This document shows positions 1 to 49,919 of a stretch of 64,000 bases of DNA, piece by piece. Made by a program: the position numbers and the translations under genes. Each line of letters opens with the position of its first letter. Position 1 is the stretch's first letter. The notes below the pieces were generated by a model. The model worked only from the letters and a program-made list of their open reading frames with translations. It ran no database searches and had not been told where the DNA came from. The stretch comes from Callorhinchus milii (lineage: Eukaryota), in NCBI RefSeq assembly GCF_018977255.1, contig NW_024704751.1, positions 16,492,001 to 16,556,000 of the forward strand, given 5' to 3'.

Positions 1-3000
1 CCCTCCCTGGTCACAGGGTTACTACTGTGTTTAAGTTGAAAGAGACGATGTGTGGATTTCAGGCAGAGCGAGGGGGAAGGTGGAGTGTTGGAACCCTTCA
101 TTCTAAAATGGGGGTTGCAACATCAGCAGTGACTGAATTTCCTGCATCAGTAGATCTGCTGCCATAACCACAAATAGAAATGAGAGTACAAAGATTTACA
201 CAGAACTTAGAGCACAGAAACAGGTCACTCAGCACAACTAGTCCGTGCCAGTGTTTATACTCCATACGAGCCCTCTCCCATTCCCCTCCTTCACAAGAAG
301 GTCTAACTTCCTCTTGATTGCATCTACACTATCTGATAGTAAGACTTCTCAAAGCTTAAAGAGGGGGGAAGTGAAGATCCCAACCCTTCAATGCGCCCAA
401 TCTGTTTCACATTTTGTCATCGTCCACCGCAGGGTTGTGTTGAAGTAGCTATGAGTGTCGTCAGCAGGGTTACTGATTCTGTCTTCCACACAGTCAGAAT
501 ATTATCTGGACGCACACCCATTTCTTGCTGAAGAGATTCGGAGGAGTGCAGCGAGGCTCGTGGAGATGGCATGTAAACATTGTGGACAGAGAACACAACC
601 TGCAGTTTGTCAGCCAACCGGACAGATAGCTCCTGGTCCTAGCTCGGGCTTCTGGTGTTACTGTGCGCTTTTCATCATATCTATAAAAGTTAAATTGATT
701 TAAAGGGGTTTTAAGTGCTCCCGCACAAAGGGTGCTATATAAATGCAAGTTGTTGTTAAAAATTATCTCGCACATTAGGAGTATTTTCAGTGTAAAGCAC
801 TTCATCCTTTTTTCTAATATTCTGTAGCCTAAGTACCTTCAGGACATGGGAAGTGAGCAGCTGTTAACACTGAGATACTCGGAGCAGTTAGATTAACGAG
901 AGCATGGATTTAAATGTTGCTCTGTGTGTACCAATACAATACTGAATGGATGGATATGTGATAGTAGCGTGGGACGGTTGTGGGATTTACTCATGTGACC
1001 CAAGGCACTGCTGCCACAGCTGGTGGTACTCTGGAGAGCAGGGATGTATTGATCAAACTCGTTTGTGTTAATGCCCAAAGTGAGGAGAAAATGTATTAAA
1101 CTAATACAGAGAGTGAGGTTAGCGAATAGAAATGGAAGAGTTTTTGGTGCCACTGATTGAGCAGTGTGCTAAGCTGAGGATGCAGTGAACATCTGTTAGA
1201 AGCCTGGCATCACACTGAGAGAGGGGGGGGAAGAGAAAGAGAGACGATCATCTTACGGGGGCTCACTGTGAGTGAGGATGACCTAAATTGGAAGAAGTTG
1301 CATGTCTGCTCCCAATTACAAGTGCGGAGCATGAATCATTCCAGAATGGATTGAATGGGAAAGTATCTGAAAGGGGCATAAGCTGAACCTTGCTCTGCGT
1401 GGCATTACGTACTTGCCAACATTCTGCTACATTCGGCCAGTGTCCAGCTTGAGCTTTCTCCCGTTGCAAAAAGTTCAGAGAAATTATTCTGCGTGAAGGG
1501 CGCTGTATAGATGCACATTGTTGTTGCTGTTATAGGATCTTATTTGAAGAACACATTCTGAACTTGGTTCAGCCGCACAGAGTCTGGCATCTTAAACACA
1601 CATCTTACAACTTCATGGTGAGGGGAGGTGGAGAAAATAATAGTGTTAAAGGCAAGTGATCTAGACCAGGGTGGGATTGTGAGCAAGCTGGTCTGAATAG
1701 TGCTGCGTGCAGGAACACTTCGGGTTGTGGTTTCTGCTCTGGGGCAGAAAGGAAATGAGGTGATTTGCTGAGTTTGGGCTTCATGCTGCAGCAAGGCCAA
1801 GATGTGGAGGCAGTGGAGTTCACACGTGCAACAGGACATGGTATACATGCCCTGATACAGCTTTGGTGAATCACAGCACATAGTAATCAACACTCATTCA
1901 GGAGGTCAGAGCCCAAAATAAAACTGGGCAGCATTTCAAAGAAAAGCACAGGCTTTGTTAGAGAGCCAGCGAGGAGTCCAAGATTTAGTGTGAAATCCTT
2001 GGACCCATTCCAGTATTTTGATGGTAATGGCAGATGGGCAATAAATCGAAAGCACATGGAGGGCACGTGAGTGAGCACACACTCGGAGCTTGCTCTGTTA
2101 TTGTTTACAAATGCAAATGTAAAACTGACAGACAGGGTGAGGACATCACCCGGACAGACACTCCAGCCTCCGTTCCCTGTGGCTGCCACTGCACTGCACT
2201 GCCACTGGGAATGCGAGCTGCAAAGGCTTTGTATCAGTGACGTGGATTGGCAAAATGAGTATTTAGATATTTTGACGATATCAATGGGATGGATTACTTG
2301 CAACCACATCAGTGTCAGGCCCAGTAATTAATTCATATCCCAACTGATCACTCAAGCTTTCACATCAGTTTCAGCAAGTATGTGTGTCATTTAGTCACAT
2401 AATCAGCAAAAATTTGAGTATGTGTGCACATAGTACAATCTGAAACTGCCTCTGCTGTTGGGTTGCAAGGCAGTTAGAATTTTAAACTCTTTATATATTT
2501 GTAACCAATGTTTTGGTACAGTCACCGGGCTATGACTGCAGAGTAACTCCAGGCTGCATTGTGAGGCTGCTGGTTTATCCACGCCATTTTCTTCAGTTGT
2601 TTCAAACCACCATTTTGTGCAGTTTAAAAGTACTGTATTTTAGTTTCTGTGATGTTTTGCTCAGTTTAATTTTGTATTGTGTAGGGCCGTTAAGTACTAT
2701 ATAAATGCAAATTGTTATTACCATGTGGCAGGACAGTGTATTGTGTAGGTGTTGGCTGAGGGCGGGGGAATTGCTGCACATATAGAAGCGTGCAATAACT
2801 GAAGCCATCGTTTCCTATCGTTAATAAGGAAACTGTGGCTTGTGTTTTGAGCAGCTGACGAGCCTCACCCCACATGATGCCTACAGTAGCTTTGCTTCTC
2901 TAATGTTAACATTTAATTTTGCAGTACTTGGGGGGAGAAGGGAGGGGGAAGGTACAGATTTATTAGGTTTTTTAAAAAAAACAGTATTTTACATTAAGTT

Positions 3001-39694: not shown

Positions 39695-40023
39695 CTAGCT
39701 GTGTCCTGGATCACAACTCGAATGTGGCAGCTCTTTGCTCTCTATTTCTTTAAGCAGGTGTGGCTGGTGCTTCTGAAGCAGGCTGTGCAAAATATCCATT
39801 GCATCATTTCCCTTTTTAATCACAAAATTCAGGGTTTCTCTGACTTGTTCTTTCAGGAGGTTGACACTGATAAGCTTCTCGTACTCTGCCTCATTGAGGA
39901 TTTCCCAGTGGCGCAGCTCTTCGATCGAACTGTTGATCTCGGGGATCCTGCAAGTCAGGGTTAGCTTGTTTCTCTGCAGGAAATGCTTGTCTGTCTTCAC
40001 ACTCAACTGTCTGTCTCCTGTGA
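39695..40023 (-). CDS. Terminal exon of the unnamed gene: CARD domain
   Basis: [38 protein letters not shown]...[36 protein letters not shown] follows the six-helix CARD pattern of ASC/NLRP1/CARD8-type CARDs. Confidence 0.88.
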
Positions 40024-43000
40024 CTATAAAAAGACGTCCTCAGCTATGGCTCGCTTCACTCATAGTGGGAAAGTTGAATTTCTATAGTACTTGTGTGAAA
40101 ATATCTCAAAGTATTGCCAAGCATAATGACCGGTTTGTAGGTAAATGAGAATATAATAATAATCCTTGCATTTGATGTAGCGCCTTATCGGGTCTTTGAA
40201 TCCATTAGAGCTTAGGCTTACAAGGTTAACAGGAGCTGAGTGTGATGATTCCCTGCCCCAGTGACTGGTCTGCCTTTCGGGGTGCTGCCGATGAGCCAGG
40301 CTGGCTGTGCGGTCATCTGTAGTGCCCTGGAATATTGCATACCCGCCTGGCTCGGGAACCGGACTATGCGATTCCGGCATCCTGTTGCCAGGCACGCCTG
40401 TTCCAGCTACAAGCCACTCACTTACCTTGACACAGGCAAGAAAGTCACAGAACTTTGTAATCAGCACAAGTACAGGAAAGAGTTGATCAATATTGAAATC
40501 GCTTTACCTTCAGCCTCGAGAACAATATCACCCTCAGGTTTGTTCTTGAGCACGTATTCAATACTGTTTTGACGGCTGATGCGCAAAGGAAGATCACCTG
40601 CAAAAATATAACAATTTTTTTTTGTAAAAGCAGCACAAATCCTGCAAGCCCCAAATTACAGTGACTGGGAAACTGCGAGGGCTCGGCAATCCAGGGGATG
40701 GGGGGCGTTGGAGGGGCGTCTGCGAGATCACCTTCTTCTTTATAAAACACGGCAAGGTTTTCCTCTGGAAATGTCAGTTCCAATTCGGTGCGGAATTGCT
40801 CGTAAGTGATTTCTTGATGGATTCTCAGGATGCAGTGCTGCTCCCCTTGCACTTTGACCAGGATATGATCTACAGGAAGTAAACAAGGTTGGGAAATCAG
40901 TCGGCTGTTCTTTGAGTCAATCCCTCTGAAAGACATTGACATGATCGAACCCTTCTGTGCAGTTGCTGATGGGCCTGGATTGGTACCTGTGCACCTCTCA
41001 ATTTTGGAGTTAGATTAGCTATAGATTAGCTAATAGTATAGATTAGCTATAATTTAATAGAACAGGCTCGATGGGCTGAGTGGCCTATTGCTGTTCCTAT
41101 ATTTCTCCCCCAGCATGAAAGTCAATATAAGTGACAGCTAATAAATACAAATATAGTTCCTAACGTAGCGGTTGAGCGAGCGATGGAATTGTTCTGAGCA
41201 CTAGCCAGAGGATGATGGACAGACAAGAATACCTTGGTTTTCATGCTGGAGCATCTGCTCAGTGAGGACTTCGGACAACACTTCCTGGTCATCATCCTCC
41301 CGCACCAGTTGGAGCTCGAGGGGCCAGGCAGTGACCTGCGACTGGTTCAGCTGCAGCATAAACTCCATTTCCGTCTTGAATTTCATGGTCTTCTGGTAAC
41401 AGAATCTATTAAATAACAGCCTACACTTCTATAGCACCCTCCACGCAGGGTAGTGTCTCAGAGCGCTTATCAGTGGCTTGGTGAGTTTGTCTCCAGTCAA
41501 ATCCTTGCCTGTCCAGCGCATTGGGCGGTCCTCTTGACATGAAAGGCGCTATACAAATGTAATTTGTTGTTGGTAAGTTTATCCTACACCAATTTTTACT
41601 GAGTAAGCCTGGACTGTGAGAAAATCTTTGTGCTTTTTTGGGGGGGATAAAGATTGGGAGAAATCTATGTGTAAGAGCATGTGCAGACTCGGTATCGTTC
41701 ATTCGGTAAATAACACAATAATTTACCTGTGGCATAATAGAGATGAAGTTAGTTTTCATCTTAGACTGAATATGAAGTCTGTAGTACATGTTCTTGACCA
41801 CACAGATTTTTTTTTTGAACACTTGCTTGCAATCTTTGTACTTTTTGTTCAAACTCTAGGGATGGATGGCAACAGAATCCAAAGTAATACACACCGTAAC
41901 AGATACAATACACGCGCTTCAAACTGTGTAATAAATTTCTGTAATTATCAAACTACAATAAACCTGGAATTACCGGACTCTGGGAACTGGGAACTTGACC
42001 CTTGGTGGAGCGGCCAGAAACAGAAATTTTCATTCATGCACATGTGGCTAGATTCCTGCTGGCTCACTCTCCTAACACGCACCACCCTCACTGTGCTCGC
42101 TGGCCTTCAGTGGCCGGGCAAATCGACTTTAACTCAGTTTGAATCCCACAAGCAGAAGAGACCTTATTCTTAGAAGGATGGTCATTATCCCTAAAAAAAA
42201 ACTAGTGAGAGAACCCAGGTTTGATTCCCAAGTGGGGCAAAACCTTAGGTAAATTTCCTTACTCCATATACCTTTGTTAACCTAGCAATGAGTAGGAACC
42301 CAGTTGTTAGTTGATTGGCAGATTGCTTTCCTGAGGTGGTAATACCTCTTCCCCCCAAAACATTTGGTCATTCAATCCACGAATGTTTGTGGGACACTGC
42401 TGTGCGCAATTGGTTGCCGTGTTTCTCCCACAAAATCAATCAATCAATCAATCAATCCACTTTACAATATATTCTGTGAAGTGCTTTGAGACATCTCAAC
42501 AGTGTGCTAAGACTCTATATCAAATGCAAAGATTATCATTATTATTATTATTGGCTATCTTCTGCGCATGGGATTCAAACAATTACATTGCCGATACTGG
42601 AAATTCCGACGAGCTGGACCAGATCTCCCACAAACACCCCCCCCCCCCATCCCCTCCAGTCCAGCTCATCGGAGGTTTAGCTTATTCACATAATCTAATC
42701 TAAAGGTAGCGGAAGATGAAATGAAGTACCTGAACCAAGTCCTCTTTTTCTCGGATCAGATGAAAAAACATAATCATTTTGTTTTGAATGTAAGCCCGGC
42801 CCACGGGCTTGTAGAGCAGGCAGTAAGCCTCACATTTATTCCAATTCGTCAAACATTTGACCAGCATGATGATGGAACAGGAGTCCAGCAGAACCCAGAC
42901 GTGAGTCTCATTGGCAGCGAGTGGCAGGAAAAGCTCAACATTCCCATTTGTGATGTGTGCGACTTGAACTGGAGGAGGGAGGAATAATATCTTGGTCAAT

Positions 43001-46000
43001 CAGGAGTTTAAAAAGTGGGGCAGCAGCAGGTAAATTAATTCTCAGATTAGTTATGGTTAAGAGCGAAGTACTTGTGCTGGTGTGCAGTGCGTTGCGATGC
43101 AATTGAGGCCAGTCTCTGATCAGGGCTCCGGTCTCCTTCACAAAATCCCACAACTCCTCCAACGCTTTCTCTCCTTTAGACAGAGTCAGGTCAACAACAG
43201 CACCAGTATCATTTAGCTCCAGGTAACCGAGTACAAGCTGTGGACGACATTAACACACAAAGTTTACATCGCCGTTTCCACAATTGATGGGATATCAAAA
43301 CTATCAGAAAAAAAGTCTGTTACAGAGGCACAGAGCAATCACCTGTCACCAACGAGGCTTTTATCAGGAGTGAGTTGTGCTGTCCCAGATGAATACTGGG
43401 ACTGGTGACAAAGGCAGCGAAATAGTATTGAAAATTCTGTCATGATCCAATAAACTGAACAGGCTTGATGGGCTGAATAGCCTCCTCCTGTCCCGAGGTT
43501 TCTAATGCATTTGAGTTCAATCTCGTACTCAAACAGGAGGCAATGGATTGGGAACCCACCCTACTTCCTCAATCTAATTCCCCAGCCTACACAAATAGGT
43601 GTGACATGCGTGTCCAGCAACTGATCTCAGCTGCACCAAGTGAGGGCTGGACCAGGGGCACTGATCAAAATGAAATCTGTACCTTCTTCTCTTCATTGTT
43701 GAACAGATTCTGCAGCTTTTGGAATAAAGAGTTTTTCAGATTCAGATATTCCTCCCGGAAGAAAAGCATCAGATTGTCTTTTATGGCAGAAGGGGTGATG
43801 CAGCTTCCTGTAAGAGTAACGCTGTTAAATTAACACCCAACAGAAAGAGTGCAGGATAAAAGTCTCACCACCTGCTTCCCACCCATTGCCATTGGGTAAC
43901 TTACAGTATGCCTTCCCCCTAATGTTAACCCAGTGAAATCCCCTCACAAGTGAGTGGACCAGGGTTCAATTCCCTGGCGGGTGAAACCCTGTAAGTTTCT
44001 GTACATCATGCTCCTCTGTCTACCTAGCAGTAAGTAGGAACCCGGGCGTTAGTCAATTGGCAGATTGCTTTCTGGGGGTAATAATCCCTCAGGAAAAAAA
44101 AATGTGGTCACCCAATCGATGGCTGTATGTGGGACTCTGCTGTGCACAATTGGCTGCCGTGTTTCGCCCACAAATACAATAGTGAATTGTGAAGCACTTT
44201 GAGACAAGTCAATGACGTGATAAGGCGCTATATCAAATATAAGGATTATCAATATTATAAATTAGACACTTATAAACTCCTCCATCCTTGTGTGATTCTG
44301 GAACACCACATACAAGAGAATACTCAGAAACGTACAAAACCAGGAGCAAAGTTAGCCCAGGATCTGAATTAAATGTTTAACAATGCATTGGAAGGAAATC
44401 AGCTCCAACATTGCACTGGGATCATTCTGGCCACTCAGACAGATGCTCAGTAGCAGACTCTGGCACTGCACGGAATATTCTGACATCTGACATTACATTT
44501 GTGGAGTCCTGTAGCTCAGTGGTTAGAGCACTCGCTTTGCAAGTGAGAGACCTAAGTTCAATTCCAGGCAGAGGGCGAAACCTTGGGCAAGTTTCCTTAC
44601 TCCACACAGAGCCTAATAATAATCCCTCCAAAACAAAAACAATAATAAATTGGTCATTTTCAATCTACGGCTGTTTGTGGGACATTGCTGTCTGCAATTG
44701 GCTGCCGCGTTCACGCACAAATATACAGTCAATTCACTTTACAGTGTGTTCTGTGAAGCTCCTCCCGACGTGAAAAGCGCTATATCAATTGCAAGGATTA
44801 TTATTATTATTCTCTTAGTCAAACATGTGTAAAACTGTTCATTTACCAAAAACTTTCAAAATGTGTCCCTGCCATTAAGACCAAAACAGTACCTTCCATC
44901 ATCTTTTATGAAATACATTAAAGAGAAACAAATGTTGTGTTAAATGGTTTAACTTGAGGTTCAGTGTCTGTGATGCTCACCTGAAGATGAGGGGTATTTG
45001 GGAAGAAACAGCAGCAGGTGTGTCCCAGGAGCATCTGTGTGCAGGTCAAAGGCTGGGCCAGCCAACGACATCTGGTCCAAGAAAGCATCCATCTCCTCCA
45101 CTTTCATCTCTCTAACATTTAGTGATTTGTTGCGTTGATCGTAAACAAGACCAAGGTTGCCATGGACCAGTGTGACTACTGGTCGATGCCTATCATCAGA
45201 GCAGGAATACATTAAATGACACAGTGCCACACACTGAATCACATACTCTTACCCAACCACATAGGTGAACCAAAGCCATTGCCCATTTGACTGATTAGTG
45301 CATATGGAATTGTCCTCCAGCACAAACTGCACATTGGAGGGGGGGGCACTCTTATTTTCAAAATAAATTGACAATTTTTTAAAAAAACTCCCAATATTGT
45401 TAGATTGAGTTGTCTATCCTATCCAACTGGACATCTTGTTTCTATTTAGGAATATAGGAACAGTAATAGGCCATTCAGCCCCTCAAGCCTGTTCTGCCAT
45501 TCTATTAGATCATGTCTGATCTCTACCTCAACTCCAATTACCTACCCTTGCCCCATATCCCTTGATCGCTTGATACTCTGACCTAACAAAAATCTATCCC
45601 CCTCAGTATTGAAAATTTGAATGGATCCAACATCCACAGCCATTTGGGGGAGAGAGTCCCAGATTTCCACTACCCTTAGTGTGAAAATGTTTCTTAAGAA
45701 ATGAAACAGTCCATCTGTCCTGATCAGGATCCTACAGACATTCAGCTGAGTCTGGAGACTTTGCTGCATTTACAAATCGCTGTTAAAACAAACAGAAACT
45801 GAGCCATGGGGTACCTTGAGGCCACTCACCCATCTCGCTGCCTGGACTTGAGCTGCTGCTTATAGCCTTGATTACCATCAATCACTCGGATAATGTCCAT
45901 GTTTGAAACCACATCTGAAAGAAGATGTGAGAGAGTTTCCTGACCAACAATCCCCCAAAACGAATTGATCTTCTCATGGCTGTTTGTTGGGCATCGTTGC

Positions 46001-48404
46001 GTGAAAATTGACTGCAACCTTTGTGTACACACGCACAGTATCTATACTTGACAACAATTACCTTGGAAGCGCTATCAGACGTTTTAAAAGTTATAGACGC
46101 TTTAATCAAACACAAGGATTCTTGGTGGATTGCTATTCCGGGGGTAACAATCCCTTACAAAAAAAGAAAATTTGGTCACTCAATCCACGACTGTTTGTGG
46201 GACGCTGTTTTGTGCATAATTGGCTGCCGCATTTCACCCGCAAAAATATACAGTCAATTCACTTTACAGTATATTATTGTGAAGCGCTTCGAGACATTTC
46301 AAACATGAAAAGGCACTAGATCAAACGCAAGGAATACTAATTATATATAGCATTACATACCAACCGCCAATGCTGCCCCCACCACTAGGTTTAGCTGTGG
46401 ATAACACTTGTATTCCCGGCCTCTGGAAAGGAGCAGGAAGCACAGCTCTGTGAATGCCACACCACGCACCTCAATCATTCTCTTCAGAAGGTGGAACATG
46501 CGTTGCTGATGGTTGTACCAGGAATCCCTTGCTGTCTCCTCAATGTCTCGATCACTGAAATCAAGGTCTCTGGCCACTGTTGTCCACTCATTGGACAGAG
46601 TCCCTGACAATCGGAACAGCCATGGATCAGCAGGTGAAGGGGTTTTAAAACCTTCATGATTCCAAATAATTGAGTCCAGATGGTGGTTTGCATGCAGCGG
46701 GATGTGGGGAAGGTCGACTGAGTCAGGGTCCAGCACAGTTACTGCACAAAGGTGAAAAATAGTTTATTGTGAATTGCTTACATGTCTCACGCTTACATTC
46801 TCTGCCACTTGAACGCTTTCTCACACTCGCTTACTTGCTCTGACAGTGGCCGCTCTTTCAGCCACTACGCACCAAAACTCTGGAACACTCTTCCTCTATC
46901 CCTCTGCCCTTGCCCCTTCCTTCCTCATCTTCAGATCGTACCTGAAGACCTTCCTGTTCGACTGTGCCTATGGTCACCTCTCCCCTTCCCCCCCACACTG
47001 GCTCGATGTCGTGCTCTGCCACTATCAAGCGCAATGGGACCCTACCCTGTGTGAGGGGCGCTACGTAAATGCAAGTTGTTGTTGTTGAACACACTTGCTA
47101 AAATTCGCACACTCACTCGCAGTTTGCTGCTGAGTCATGGTATCGGGGTAGCTGCTCCTCAGCTCTCGGCTGATGTGTGGAAAGCCTCGGGCTGAGCAGA
47201 GTGTGAGGAAGGCATTGGCTGCCGTGGGACCGTACCACACCACCATGTCCGTCTTCTGAGCTGCCATCTTTAAAAATGACTTAATATTGTATCGCTCCTG
47301 CAGAAGAAAGAGGAAACTGGGAATAATTAATTGTGAGTGTCCAGGAGTGTGGCAATGAGTAGGAATCTCAATCCCCTCCTGTCATATTCTTCACAGAAAG
47401 GCACAATCAAATGACTCTATGATCTGGAATGCACTGCCTAAAAGTGCGGTGGAAGCAGATTTAATAGTAGGTTTCGAAAGGGAATTGGATTGGGACTTGA
47501 AAAGAAAAAATATACAGGACTGCGAGTAAGAGTGGGGGAGTGGGACTAGTTGGATAACTCTTTCAAAGAAGGTTGTGGGTTCAAGGTATCCGAGGACTTG
47601 ATCTCACATCCAGGCTGACACTTCAACAATTAAAGGGGGGGAACACTGCATTATCAGACATGTTGTCTTTCAGAAGAGATGTCAAACCGAGATGTTTCTC
47701 CTCATATTCTGGTCAACAATTCTCCAGATAAACTGGTCGACATTTGGAAAACAAATCCACATTAAACAAAAGGATGTACCTCCAGGAGGTAGAAATTAAC
47801 GCACCGTGATAAAGGTGTGCTTCTGGAGTAGCATCTTTGCATTATTAACCGCCTTGGCCCATCTGATACCTAAGGAGAATGAAACAAGTTAAATCACTGG
47901 CTGATGAAAAGCTTGACATACATTGAGGGGGACAGCATGGAGTTACCCAGAGTTACAGGCAGGAAGATCTTGTGTCCCTGGAGATGGTGGAAGGTTCGGT
48001 ATTTCTGGTGTGGTCGCTTCAGAGACACAAGGAGCGCATGCAACAGCTCCCGTTTACACCACTGCATTTTGTCCTCCGGGATTGAGCCACCGCTGAACCT
48101 CTCTTGCTGAAGCATCCGAAACAGCTCCTGGTAAAAGTCTCCTCTCTTCTCTCTGATCCAGTGCTCTGCCAGATCCCTCATGTCTGTAGGGAACTCTGGG
48201 CAGCAAGTGATTAAGGAAGCAAAGAGCTGCAGGTCCAACTTATTGACATCCAAATCTCCAGCTATTTGGATAGACATCTGTAACAGATTGCCTGATGGAA
48301 AGGCAACATTAGCACAATTACTTGGACATCTGCTTATATTGGACGCTATTCCTAATCTAAGATCCCAGATGAGATTCGTGCCCATCTCTCCTCCAGCCCT
48401 CCCT

Positions 48405-48436
<32 letters not shown>

Positions 48437-49919
48437 GAATGCAAAAATAATATTGTACCTATTTCTTGATCTTGATGCAGTAAATCCAAATAAACCTTTT
48501 GGAAGCTTTCAAGGCTAATGCTGGATAAATATTCATTGCTCACTCGCATCAGAGCTTTTGCAACCTCCGCCAGGGTTTGGCCTCCGTGCTTACAGAGGTC
48601 TTCCAGCTCCTGCAGCCATCCTTTATTTGTCGGACACCCGGAACTGGTGCAGAGAGTGGGTCCCATCTCCAGCTCTGGCTTCAGCTGCTGTAGTAATGGC
48701 CTAATGTCACCTTCACAAAGACATCAAACACAAAAACCTCAACGTTTCGTAAGAACATAAGAATTTGCTGAGCGAAAGGTCCATCCATCATCCAAGTCGC
48801 CTTCCATCGTCCTGGCAGTCGCTTGACATGTCTTGTCCCAAACAACGTATTGTATTCTGAGATATTATTTCCTAACAGAAAACTATGTAATTTGTTCTTG
48901 AAAGAATTAACACTTTCTGCTTCCACTGTGGGGTCAAGAAGCTGTGGTGTCTGTGTCACCATCGCGGTGAGGGTTGAGGAAGTGGTTGGGAAATCTGAGG
49001 GCATTCGCACAGAATCGAAGCGGAACAAAGTGCTTTGTTCAATTTCATTTCATTTCCGAACAAACGCAATGAATGAGAAATATCTCCATCGCCCCCTCCC
49101 CCCCCACACCCCTACCCCCACCCCCACCCCCCACACACACACACCTGGGACTACACTCTGTGCCAAACCAGGTCACTCTGCCCCCCATCCCCACCCCACC
49201 CAGTGATTCCTTCTGCTTTGCTTCTCGTAACTAACTCCTGGTCTCAGCCTTACCTCCACCTGCTCACACTCCCTCCCTCCCCCCTCCATCCCTCTCTCTA
49301 TCCCTCTCCTCCCCTTCCCCCCTCCCTCCCTCTCCTCCCCTCCCTACCTCCATCCATCCCTCCCCTCCCTCCCTCTTCTCCCCTCCCTCCCTCCATCCAT
49401 CCATCCCTCTATCCTCCCTCCCTCTCNNNNNNNNNNNNNNNNNNNNNNNNNNNNNNNNNNNNNNNNNNNNNNNNNNNNNNNNNNNNNNNNNNNNNNNNNN
49501 NNNNNNNNNNNNNNNNNNNNNNNNNNNNNNNNNNNNNNNNNNNNNNNNNNNNNNNNNNNNNNNNTCCCTCCCCTCCCATCCCTCTATCCCTCCCTCTCCT
49601 CCCTCCATCCATCCCTCTCCTCCATCCCTCCCTCTCTCCTCCCCTCCCTCCCTCCCTCCCTCCCTCTCCCCTCCCCTCTCCCCCCCCCCGGCAGCCACTC
49701 ACCCTGTGCTGTGTGCAGTTGCTGGAGGCAGCCGATGACTCCGGTCTCCAGGGAGTCCATGAGATCGATCCCCACCGACAGATACCCCGAGTCCATCGAT
49801 TCCCAATCGCAGTCGTCCCCGTGTGTGAGGGTCAGTTTGGCCCCGAGGCCGCGCCCCCCCGACCCGCTGTCCTCCCGCCCGCACTTGGTCCTCTCTAACC
49901 GGACACGCGCCGTCGACAT
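39695..49919 (-). CDS. Unnamed multidomain NLRP1/CARD8-like FIIND-CARD protein (degron - PYD-like - Death - ZU5[CARD insert] - UPA - PB1 - CARD), about 1036 aa
   Basis: 16 GT-AG exons splice into one open frame of 3111 nt: 49919-49703, 48710-48459, 48291-47947, 47869-47805, 47297-47117, 46741-46361, 45914-45830, 45189-44981, 43807-43683, 43237-43072, 42968-42730, 41855-41727, 41392-41233, 40869-40732, 40597-40508, 40023-39695 (TAG). All phases are compatible. Minus-strand AATAAA at 39464-39459. Confidence 0.85.
40508..40869 (-). CDS. Two exons of the unnamed gene encoding a PB1-like domain
   Basis: [46 protein letters not shown]|[30 protein letters not shown]: Lys on strand beta1 and OPCA-like YKEEGD. 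Confidence 0.72.
41233..45189 (-). CDS. FIIND (ZU5+UPA) exons of the unnamed gene, with a CARD-like insert
   Basis: LGLVY...AGPAFDL...LFLPKY (ZU5 N-half), [15 protein letters not shown]...HVWVLLDSC|SIIMLVK...CLLY...FHLI (cleavage region), YRL...[24 protein letters not shown] (UPA end). Confidence 0.82.
42200..42551 (+). mobile_element. tRNA-derived SINE, longer subfamily, diverged
   Basis: B-box remnant, gtaggaacccagttgttagttgattggcaga segment, (TTA)n tail. Confidence 0.75.
43955..44250 (+). mobile_element. tRNA-derived SINE, longer subfamily, diverged
   Basis: GGTTCAATTCC B box and shared body and tail. Confidence 0.75.
44501..44811 (+). mobile_element. tRNA(Ala)-derived SINE with an L2-like tail, full-length copy
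   Basis: A box TAGCTCAGTGG, TGC anticodon-like loop, B box GTTCAATTCC, tail gcgctatatca..tgcaagga(TTA)n. Near-identical to the copy at 57439. Confidence 0.9.
45445..45700 (-). mobile_element. CR1-like LINE 3' fragment
   Basis: [16 protein letters not shown]...F..E.DRFL and tail homologous to 51800-52030. Another fragment near 48756-48950. Confidence 0.75.
46130..46340 (+). mobile_element. 5'-truncated SINE copy
   Basis: Shared body: caatccacgactgtttgtggg...aattggctgccg...actttacag. Confidence 0.72.
46361..46741 (-). CDS. Death-domain exon of the unnamed gene
   Basis: [69 protein letters not shown] matches the DD pattern W..lAR.LgFS..dIe.i......eq...mL..w....G..at...L...L...gR. Confidence 0.82.
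46800..47087 (+). mobile_element. L2 LINE 3'-end fragment
   Basis: [16 protein letters not shown]...LKTFLF with tail aaatgcaagttgttgttgtt. Similar fragments at 20650-20895 and 61140-61410. Confidence 0.78.
49427..49563. other. Assembly gap inside a C/T-rich low-complexity tract (49270-49690) in intron 1 of the unnamed gene
   Basis: N run flanked by CCCT/CCAT repeats. Confidence 0.97.

Follow-up and report, generated by a model that had tools for sequence, protein, structure and literature searches.

A predicted PB1 domain between the UPA and the CARD of a CARD8-like protein from elephant shark and other cartilaginous fishes

PIDD1, UNC5, and ankyrin are proteins that carry a ZU5, a UPA, and a death domain within one chain. 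Closer to the protein considered here are CARD8 and NLRP1, which end in ZU5-UPA followed by a C-terminal CARD. The linkers between UPA and CARD are flexible, with 17 residues in CARD8 and 25 residues in NLRP1; the UPA lowers the filament threshold, UPA and CARD together drive CARD8 and NLRP1 filaments, and CARD8 recruits caspase-1 directly (PMC7794386). PB1 domains pair via a basic face and an acidic OPCA face, and PB1 polymers additionally need a double-arginine finger. For example, PKC-zeta, which has an AB-type PB1 without this finger, forms no filaments (PMC6978347). A preliminary description of the locus analyzed here had placed a PB1 domain between UPA and C-terminal CARD, and had rightly pointed out that NLRP1 and CARD8 (25 and 17 residues, respectively) have only a linker at this position (PMC7794386).

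The elephant shark (Callorhinchus milii) has caspase-1 and gasdermin A/B, and ASC was not found (10.64898/2026.07.03.736391); the main text of the same preprint makes no mention of FIIND, CARD8, or NLRP1. The single PYRIN match of the genome (L033:1447-1761 and 2535-2930, plus strand; G000 C27) is followed by an apparent death domain, as judged by eye, and by no CARD, which is in line with the absence of ASC in the preprint. This apparent two-exon PYD and death-domain protein, which does not appear to be ASC, is a possible adaptor for death-domain sensors. In the literature searched (main texts of openly available papers), no description of a UPA-PB1-CARD architecture was found, nor any of NLRP1/CARD8 in elephant shark, of PB1-CARD domain shuffling, or of LOC103179628. 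The term "PB1 domain" was absent from the ZU5/UPA/autoproteolysis literature among the matches listed. No description of a protein of the LOC103179628 type was found in PMC11258412, and no mention of PB1 or sharks in PMC11760013. In the paper examined for FIIND, PB1, and CARD in inflammasomes, "PB1" turned out to be influenza PB1-F2.

The stretch of DNA analyzed (64,000 nucleotides, referred to as the window) contains LOC103179628 as a minus-strand gene at 49919-39698, to which the public proteins P0011 and P0033 match. Without a single mismatch, the 1035 aa of P0033 are encoded by 16 exons of the window; from its N-terminus, the protein consists of a helical region, a death domain, ZU5 with an insert, UPA, PB1, and a CARD. 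The features are as follows (window positions).

39698..49919, minus strand: whole coding span, 16 exons, 1035 aa
46362..46741, minus strand: death-domain exon, aa 355-480
44979..45190, minus strand: ZU5, N-terminal portion, aa 510-579, identified by its position and motif (AF2 pLDDT <50)
43683..43807, minus strand: first exon of the ZU5 insert, aa 580-620, predicted six-helix insert
43071..43237, minus strand: second exon of the ZU5 insert, aa 621-675, predicted six-helix insert
42730..42968, minus strand: end of ZU5 with His680, putative autoproteolysis site C706/S707, and start of UPA
41727..41855, minus strand: UPA exon 2; one X6 contig joins 42730 to 41855
41233..41389, minus strand: UPA exon 3, with the acceptor of the public model; the true acceptor may be further upstream
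40732..40869, minus strand: PB1 exon A, predicted beta1, beta2, alpha1, and beta3, aa 851-897, with L854 (canonical Lys position), K856, invariant C863, and R866-I867-H868
40598..40731, minus strand: PB1 intron, 134 nt, phase 1, within the loop at the OPCA position
40508..40597, minus strand: PB1 exon B, predicted beta4, alpha2, and beta5, aa 897-927
39698..40023, minus strand: final coding exon, with a 12-aa linker and the C-terminal CARD, which is nearest to the CARD of CARD8

Both PB1 exons lie on the minus strand and have GT/AG ends, with phase 1 at all three junctions, and the roughly 76 residues that they encode together are located between UPA and CARD. The coordinates and the placement of the segment given in the preliminary description are confirmed. 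The same is true for its start of the released fragment at S707, from where 329 aa (it had given about 330) extend to the C-terminus.

The evidence for splicing comes from contigs of 7 of the 14 listed runs, which are presumed to be RNA, none being on record as such. The UPA exon is joined to PB1 exon A (41233 to 40869) in contigs of X1, X2, and X3, all from one study, and PB1 exon B (40508) is joined to the CARD exon in contigs of X2, X3, and X7. The joint between exons A and B, from which the 134-nt intron is removed, is found in X7 only (1/7 runs), in one contig, the shorter arm of which has 29 letters. Unspliced copies of this intron occur in contigs of X1, X2, and X3, and X1 covers further introns too, which indicates that precursor RNA or DNA is present. 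One X3 contig retains 40731-40598 and nevertheless joins the CARD exon; it may be only a partly spliced precursor. From a transcript retaining the intron, a protein with a truncated PB1, an added hydrophobic tail, and no CARD would be expected. The spliced reading is supported by an intronless paralog (contig C1, 991 aa) and by the shark proteins, all of which have the same uninterrupted PB1. A chance frame or mis-splicing was rejected for the same reason.

The intronless paralogs form an inverted pair near 29.55 Mb of G000 C1 (L005:5753-8728, minus strand, and L004:4526-8041, plus strand). In one of them the 991-aa frame is intact; its partner is interrupted by an in-frame stop downstream of the death domain and carries a repeat-like insertion inside its PB1. 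The neighbors upstream of LOC103179628, at window 55844-53654 and 63999-58561 (minus strand), presumably are GPN2 and GPATCH3, which they resemble in their motifs.

That the segment has the PB1 beta-grasp fold is near certain from structure prediction, far beyond chance. AlphaFold2, with an alignment of 11 rows, gives a 79-aa model of pLDDT 89.7 and the order strand-strand-helix-strand-helix-strand, with which the Atlas model of the segment agrees. With this model the best Foldseek row is the PB1 of NBR1 (E 2.3e-4) and the first ten rows are all PB1 entries. In the VIA structure comparison (48,161 chains) 14 chains reached Z>=8 (8.2-11.5), and 14/14 are PB1 entries, the best being the PB1 of MEKK3 (Z 11.5, rmsd 1.8, 76 aligned). 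The first non-PB1 fold follows at Z 7.4 and ubiquitin-like rows at Z about 7. A plain ubiquitin or FERM identity of the domain was therefore rejected (Z 7.4 or less). The absence of a ubiquitin-like beta-grasp, which according to the preliminary description would speak against its proposal, is hence not what the models predict. At the sequence level the signal is lower. The Pfam PB1 profile (PF00564) does match the window protein, with 15.8 bits and E 0.014 (15.1 in a second run), but below the curated cut-off of 23.6, so that the Pfam check proposed earlier came out with a PB1 match that stays under the threshold. The Stegostoma homologue (16.8 bits) also stays below 23.6; PB1 is matched at E<=1 in 7/8 family members (best E 0.00025). 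Searches of the PDB sequences with the 79-aa domain (phmmer) gave 0 matches at E<=10, and those with the family profile gave only CARDs and no PB1 structure.

The fold does not mean that the domain interacts as other PB1 domains do. Canonical PB1 lysines are K7 in p62 and K11 in AtNBR1 (PMC6978347), K355 in p67phox (PMC2121648), and K14 in TFG (10.1101/2024.11.05.621662). By the starts of the VIA aligned ranges (model residue 2 with residue 3 of p62, 1 with 6 of AtNBR1, 1 with 350 of p67phox, and 2 with 10 of TFG), all four lysines fall on model residue 6, which is L854. This predicted register uses range ends only and assumes that the first six residues are ungapped. From sequences, MAFFT also gives residue 6, global hhalign gives residue 8 with a gap of 2 residues, and BLOSUM windows are undecided. 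Position 854 is L, F, Y, or I in 11/11 sequences and basic in 0/11. In this register the "beta1 Lys" of the preliminary description, K856, lies two residues past the canonical site, and it is not confirmed as the canonical Lys. The sites of the double-arginine finger (R21/R22) are C followed by I, V, or T in 11/11 sequences, and beta2 of the window PB1 contains no RR at all.

The OPCA motif consists of four acids at i, i+2, i+4, and i+13 (PMC2121648, PMC6978347). Depending on the register, the window PB1 has 1 or 2 of these 4 acids, and the nine shark rows have 0-1. As a control, OPCA acids were counted in PB1 domains of the same genome: p62, TFG, PKC-iota, and PKC-zeta have 4/4, MEKK has 1, and Par6 has 2. 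Except for TFG, these loci (p62, PKC-iota, PKC-zeta, MEKK, and Par6) bear names that we assume from their motifs. In the sharks the loop at the OPCA position is basic (QKG, RKG, AKG), and D is found at the GD position in 9/11. From these counts, YKEEGD, previously described as acidic and OPCA-like, is a species-specific look-alike whose acidity is not shared by sharks.

These residues bear on the model of the preliminary description, in which a type AB PB1 would polymerize head to tail and nucleate a CARD filament, or would co-polymerize with p62. The fold, the beta1 Lys, and the EEGD of the elephant shark gave rise to this model, hhalign is able to put K856 on the canonical site, and the D at the GD position is widespread. 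However, Lys at the 856 site is present in only 2/11 sequences, the double-arginine finger in 0/11, the second acidic cluster is absent, shark loops are basic, and even PKC-zeta, which is AB-type, makes no filaments when the finger is missing (PMC6978347). We hold this model to be very unlikely. With canonical Lys and finger lacking in 11/11 and OPCA acids at 0-2/4, the two surfaces proposed for a head-to-tail polymer do not exist in canonical form, and for the same reason a canonical coupling to p62, aPKC, or MEKK3 is not supported. With these residues missing, the PB1 of LOC103179628 likely does not polymerize. A complex prediction with two PB1 copies (score 0.02 versus a mark of 0.32) is uninformative with respect to self-association.

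The basic face could also have shifted rather than disappeared. The +2 site is K or R in 6/11 sequences and R866 is invariant in all 11, which makes such a face possible. K/R 856, R866, and the basic residues after the hairpin turn would then act in a type B-like manner, in one-to-one contact with an acidic PB1 (such as p62, NBR1, MEK5, or p40phox), and couple the fragment to autophagy or kinase signaling without a polymer. The type B domain of MEKK3 is among the best structural matches, and the genome has genes for p62, TFG, aPKC, MEK5-like, and MEKK proteins. Nevertheless, the canonical Lys/Arg sites are hydrophobic in 11/11, the +2 site is T, M, G, or N in 5/11, and the window PB1 has 16 acidic versus 8 basic residues. 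The shifted face is thus a tentative alternative that we regard as rather unlikely.

The architecture was found in cartilaginous fishes only. One search gave 9 proteins; in a second search 5 of 26 representatives scored <1e-30, the next two being a frog CARD-repeat protein and a teleost FIIND protein; a PB1-weighted profile again gave 9 proteins (7,989 best candidates scored). With cluster members the family comprises 8 species, one chimaera and seven sharks, and in these protein searches no member with UPA-PB1-CARD was found from a bony vertebrate, a ray, or a skate. A tree of 11 proteins has two lineages, each with chimaera and shark members, with long branches weakening the second join. PB1 is present in both lineages and consequently predates the split of chimaeras and sharks, which occurred about 400 million years ago. 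Shark isoform pairs (P0005/P0037, P0002/P0004, P0009/P0043) differ by a 41-aa piece of the PB1-CARD linker, by loss of the death domain, or by an end ahead of PB1-CARD. For example, the Mustelus isoform P0009 stops ahead of PB1 and CARD.

PB1 is conserved as strongly as the CARD: identities to lineage-A sharks are 53-64% for PB1, 56-57% for CARD, and 44-46% for UPA. This has to be considered when PB1 is thought of as a rigid, stable spacer that binds nothing and fixes the distance between UPA and CARD. Both canonical faces are gone, as would be expected for a spacer, and the linker between PB1 and CARD varies from 11 to 52 aa across the family, which leaves the geometry loose. But the conservation of PB1 equals that of the CARD, and 11 PB1 columns are invariant, including C, R, and H, some of which may be structural. 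A mere spacer therefore appears quite unlikely.

As to the origin of the module, PB1, the death-domain exon, and the ZU5 insert are each flanked by phase-1 introns, which fits exon shuffling. When the family profile was compared with seven PB1 domains of the same genome, TFG scored best (12.6 bits, 0/300 shuffles; MEKK 7.8), and the TFG exon was the top non-family match among retrieved loci totaling 245,000 aa, with a weak E of 0.095. In TFG of the elephant shark the domain is likewise split over two exons, by a phase-1 intron that follows YKxE, and the 134-nt intron is equal to the TFG intron in codon and phase (ungapped register); aPKC, MEKK, and Par6 of the same genome have an additional intron after beta1. 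The structure comparison places MEKK3 and NBR1 above TFG, and the TFG origin is for this reason suggestive only. Most likely, PB1 is a shuffled-in module, possibly TFG-derived, that is reused as a non-canonical docking element.

The C-terminal CARD is matched by Pfam with 35.4 bits (cut-off 23.9, E 1e-9) and superimposes on the CARD of CARD8 (6xkj) with Z 16.7, rmsd 1.2, and 85 aligned residues (VIA); a quick CARD tree without bootstrap leaves its placement relative to CARD8 undecided. The Pfam FIIND match of the window protein is 19.3 bits (E 0.0036), below the cut-off of 25.8, and that of the homologue P0008 is 28.3. UPA-FIIND Pfam matches are weak in 4 homologues, and Atlas gives FIIND 0.91 for the Stegostoma region. 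The full-length AF2 model has a mean pLDDT of 46.5 and a pTM of 0.23, with FIIND at pLDDT <50, values from which neither domain packing nor a FIIND fold can be read. NACHT and LRR were without a Pfam match in P0033 or its homologues at E<=10. The death-domain exon has a Pfam Death match below the cut-off (E 0.0044) and superimposes on the death domain of ankyrin-G (VIA, Z 11.5, rmsd 2.3, 90 aligned).

Two further regions are helical. Exons 43807-43683 and 43237-43071 (minus strand) encode about 96 aa within ZU5, directly ahead of the strand with the catalytic His; AF2 predicts six helices (pLDDT 60-83), and the insert is present in 15/15 aligned rows. One VIA row, full-length ASCb aligned over 580-1022, hints at a death fold in the insert. 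hhalign of the insert with CARD or death-domain profiles gave probabilities <1%, and Atlas holds no model of it. The N-terminal helical region (window 48708-47118, minus strand) has about 300 aa with 31-46% identity across the family; it gave no convincing Pfam match and at most 2% in hhalign with CARD/death-domain profiles.

His680 and Ser707 occupy the positions of the catalytic His and Ser of NLRP1 (10.1101/2020.08.14.246132). The cleavage motif of the window protein is SC/S-I and not SF/S-P; other rows have SH/SP, SC/SP, or SL/SP, and Pro follows Ser in 14/15 aligned rows, the window alone having Ile. The catalytic His is Gln in 6/15 rows (3 species), including Heterodontus and both lineage-A genes of Scyliorhinus. 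These Heterodontus and Scyliorhinus lineage-A genes with Gln have a His immediately preceding Ser. The His to Gln changes in some genes, together with the SC/S site, indicate that cleavage may not be general. Judged from the sequence, autoproteolysis at the putative site S707 is likely, and the release of a UPA-PB1-CARD fragment is plausible. The start of this fragment with S-I rather than S-P may weaken its capture by DPP9, and FIIND sensors are controlled by degradation. The beta-grasp could thus be thought of as a ubiquitin-like handle by which the freed fragment is taken to the proteasome or p97 for clearance, the more so as ubiquitin-like rows come next to the PB1 rows, at Z about 7. The PB1 rows (8.2-11.5), however, lie above every ubiquitin-like row, and S-P is retained in 14/15 aligned rows, which renders a degradation handle highly improbable.

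We favor, with a probability of roughly 0.55, a non-polymerizing PB1 on a CARD8-like fragment, which docks one partner via a non-canonical face and tunes the threshold, with cleavage at S707, nucleation by UPA/CARD, and direct recruitment of caspase-1. The module would have been acquired before the split of chimaeras and sharks, as two exons of phase 1-1 that derive from a PB1 gene, for which TFG is the best candidate. Self-cleavage at S707 would free UPA-PB1-CARD once the N-terminal part is lost; UPA and CARD rather than PB1 would nucleate the filament, and the CARD would recruit caspase-1 directly, as does that of CARD8. The remodeled beta1-beta2 face (aromatic at 854, invariant C863, RIH) might dock one partner, most probably a fixed regulator or a different region of the protein itself, and the firing threshold would thereby shift.

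UPA-PB1-CARD is a real variant of FIIND-CARD sensors, unreported as far as searched, with a mechanism less dramatic than that initially proposed. For the caspase-1/gasdermin A/B pathway of the elephant shark no canonical sensor has been named so far, and the PB1-bearing family and a plain CARD8-like gene are direct candidates for an upstream sensor. NLRP1 and CARD8 release a minimal UPA-CARD piece, the threshold of which comes from UPA clustering and DPP9; a predicted folded PB1 retained in such a piece offers a natural experiment on the tuning of firing by added modules. The domain also illustrates clearly that a PB1 can lose both canonical faces and yet stay conserved. A wider and speculative reading, unlikely in our estimation, would be a cartilaginous-fish class of self-cleaving sensors, with a death domain, a helical ZU5 insert, and PB1 shuffled into a CARD8-like frame, that activates caspase-1/gasdermin A/B of the elephant shark independently of ASC and whose rewired PB1 couples the freed CARD fragment physically to a PB1 kinase or autophagy network by a new binding mode.

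Compared with known systems, LOC103179628 resembles CARD8 and NLRP1 in its end, ZU5-UPA and then a C-terminal CARD, and in His and Ser at the catalytic positions, and it resembles CARD8 in particular in that its CARD is nearest by structure (Z 16.7) and near by sequence and that NACHT and LRR were not found. Unlike both, it has a 76-aa PB1 in place of the linker, an N-terminal helical region and a death domain, a predicted six-helix ZU5 insert, and an SC/S-I site. Elsewhere in this genome there is a FIIND-CARD gene of the ordinary kind, P0019, which lacks PB1 and is one of at least four other FIIND genes above the Pfam cut-off (G000 C8 9.75-9.78 Mb and C11 17.32 Mb). With the polymers of p62/SQSTM1, TFG, and AtNBR1 the domain shares the predicted fold and the YK ahead of the loop, and with TFG the intron position and two-exon layout, whereas the canonical Lys and the double-arginine finger are absent and only 1-2/4 OPCA acids are present. 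It is like the type B domains of MEKK2/3, Par6, and p67phox in having MEKK3 as best structural match and in its OPCA count of 1-2/4, and differs from them by L, F, Y, or I at the canonical Lys. A precedent for a disarmed PB1 is mammalian NOXA1, which has lost basic PB1 residues and the binding of p40phox (PMC2121648). Finally, ZU5, UPA, and death domain occur together as in PIDD1, UNC5, and ankyrin, and the death domain matches that of ankyrin-G (Z 11.5); in LOC103179628, however, the death domain lies ahead of ZU5, and a CARD with PB1 in front of it serves as C-terminal effector.
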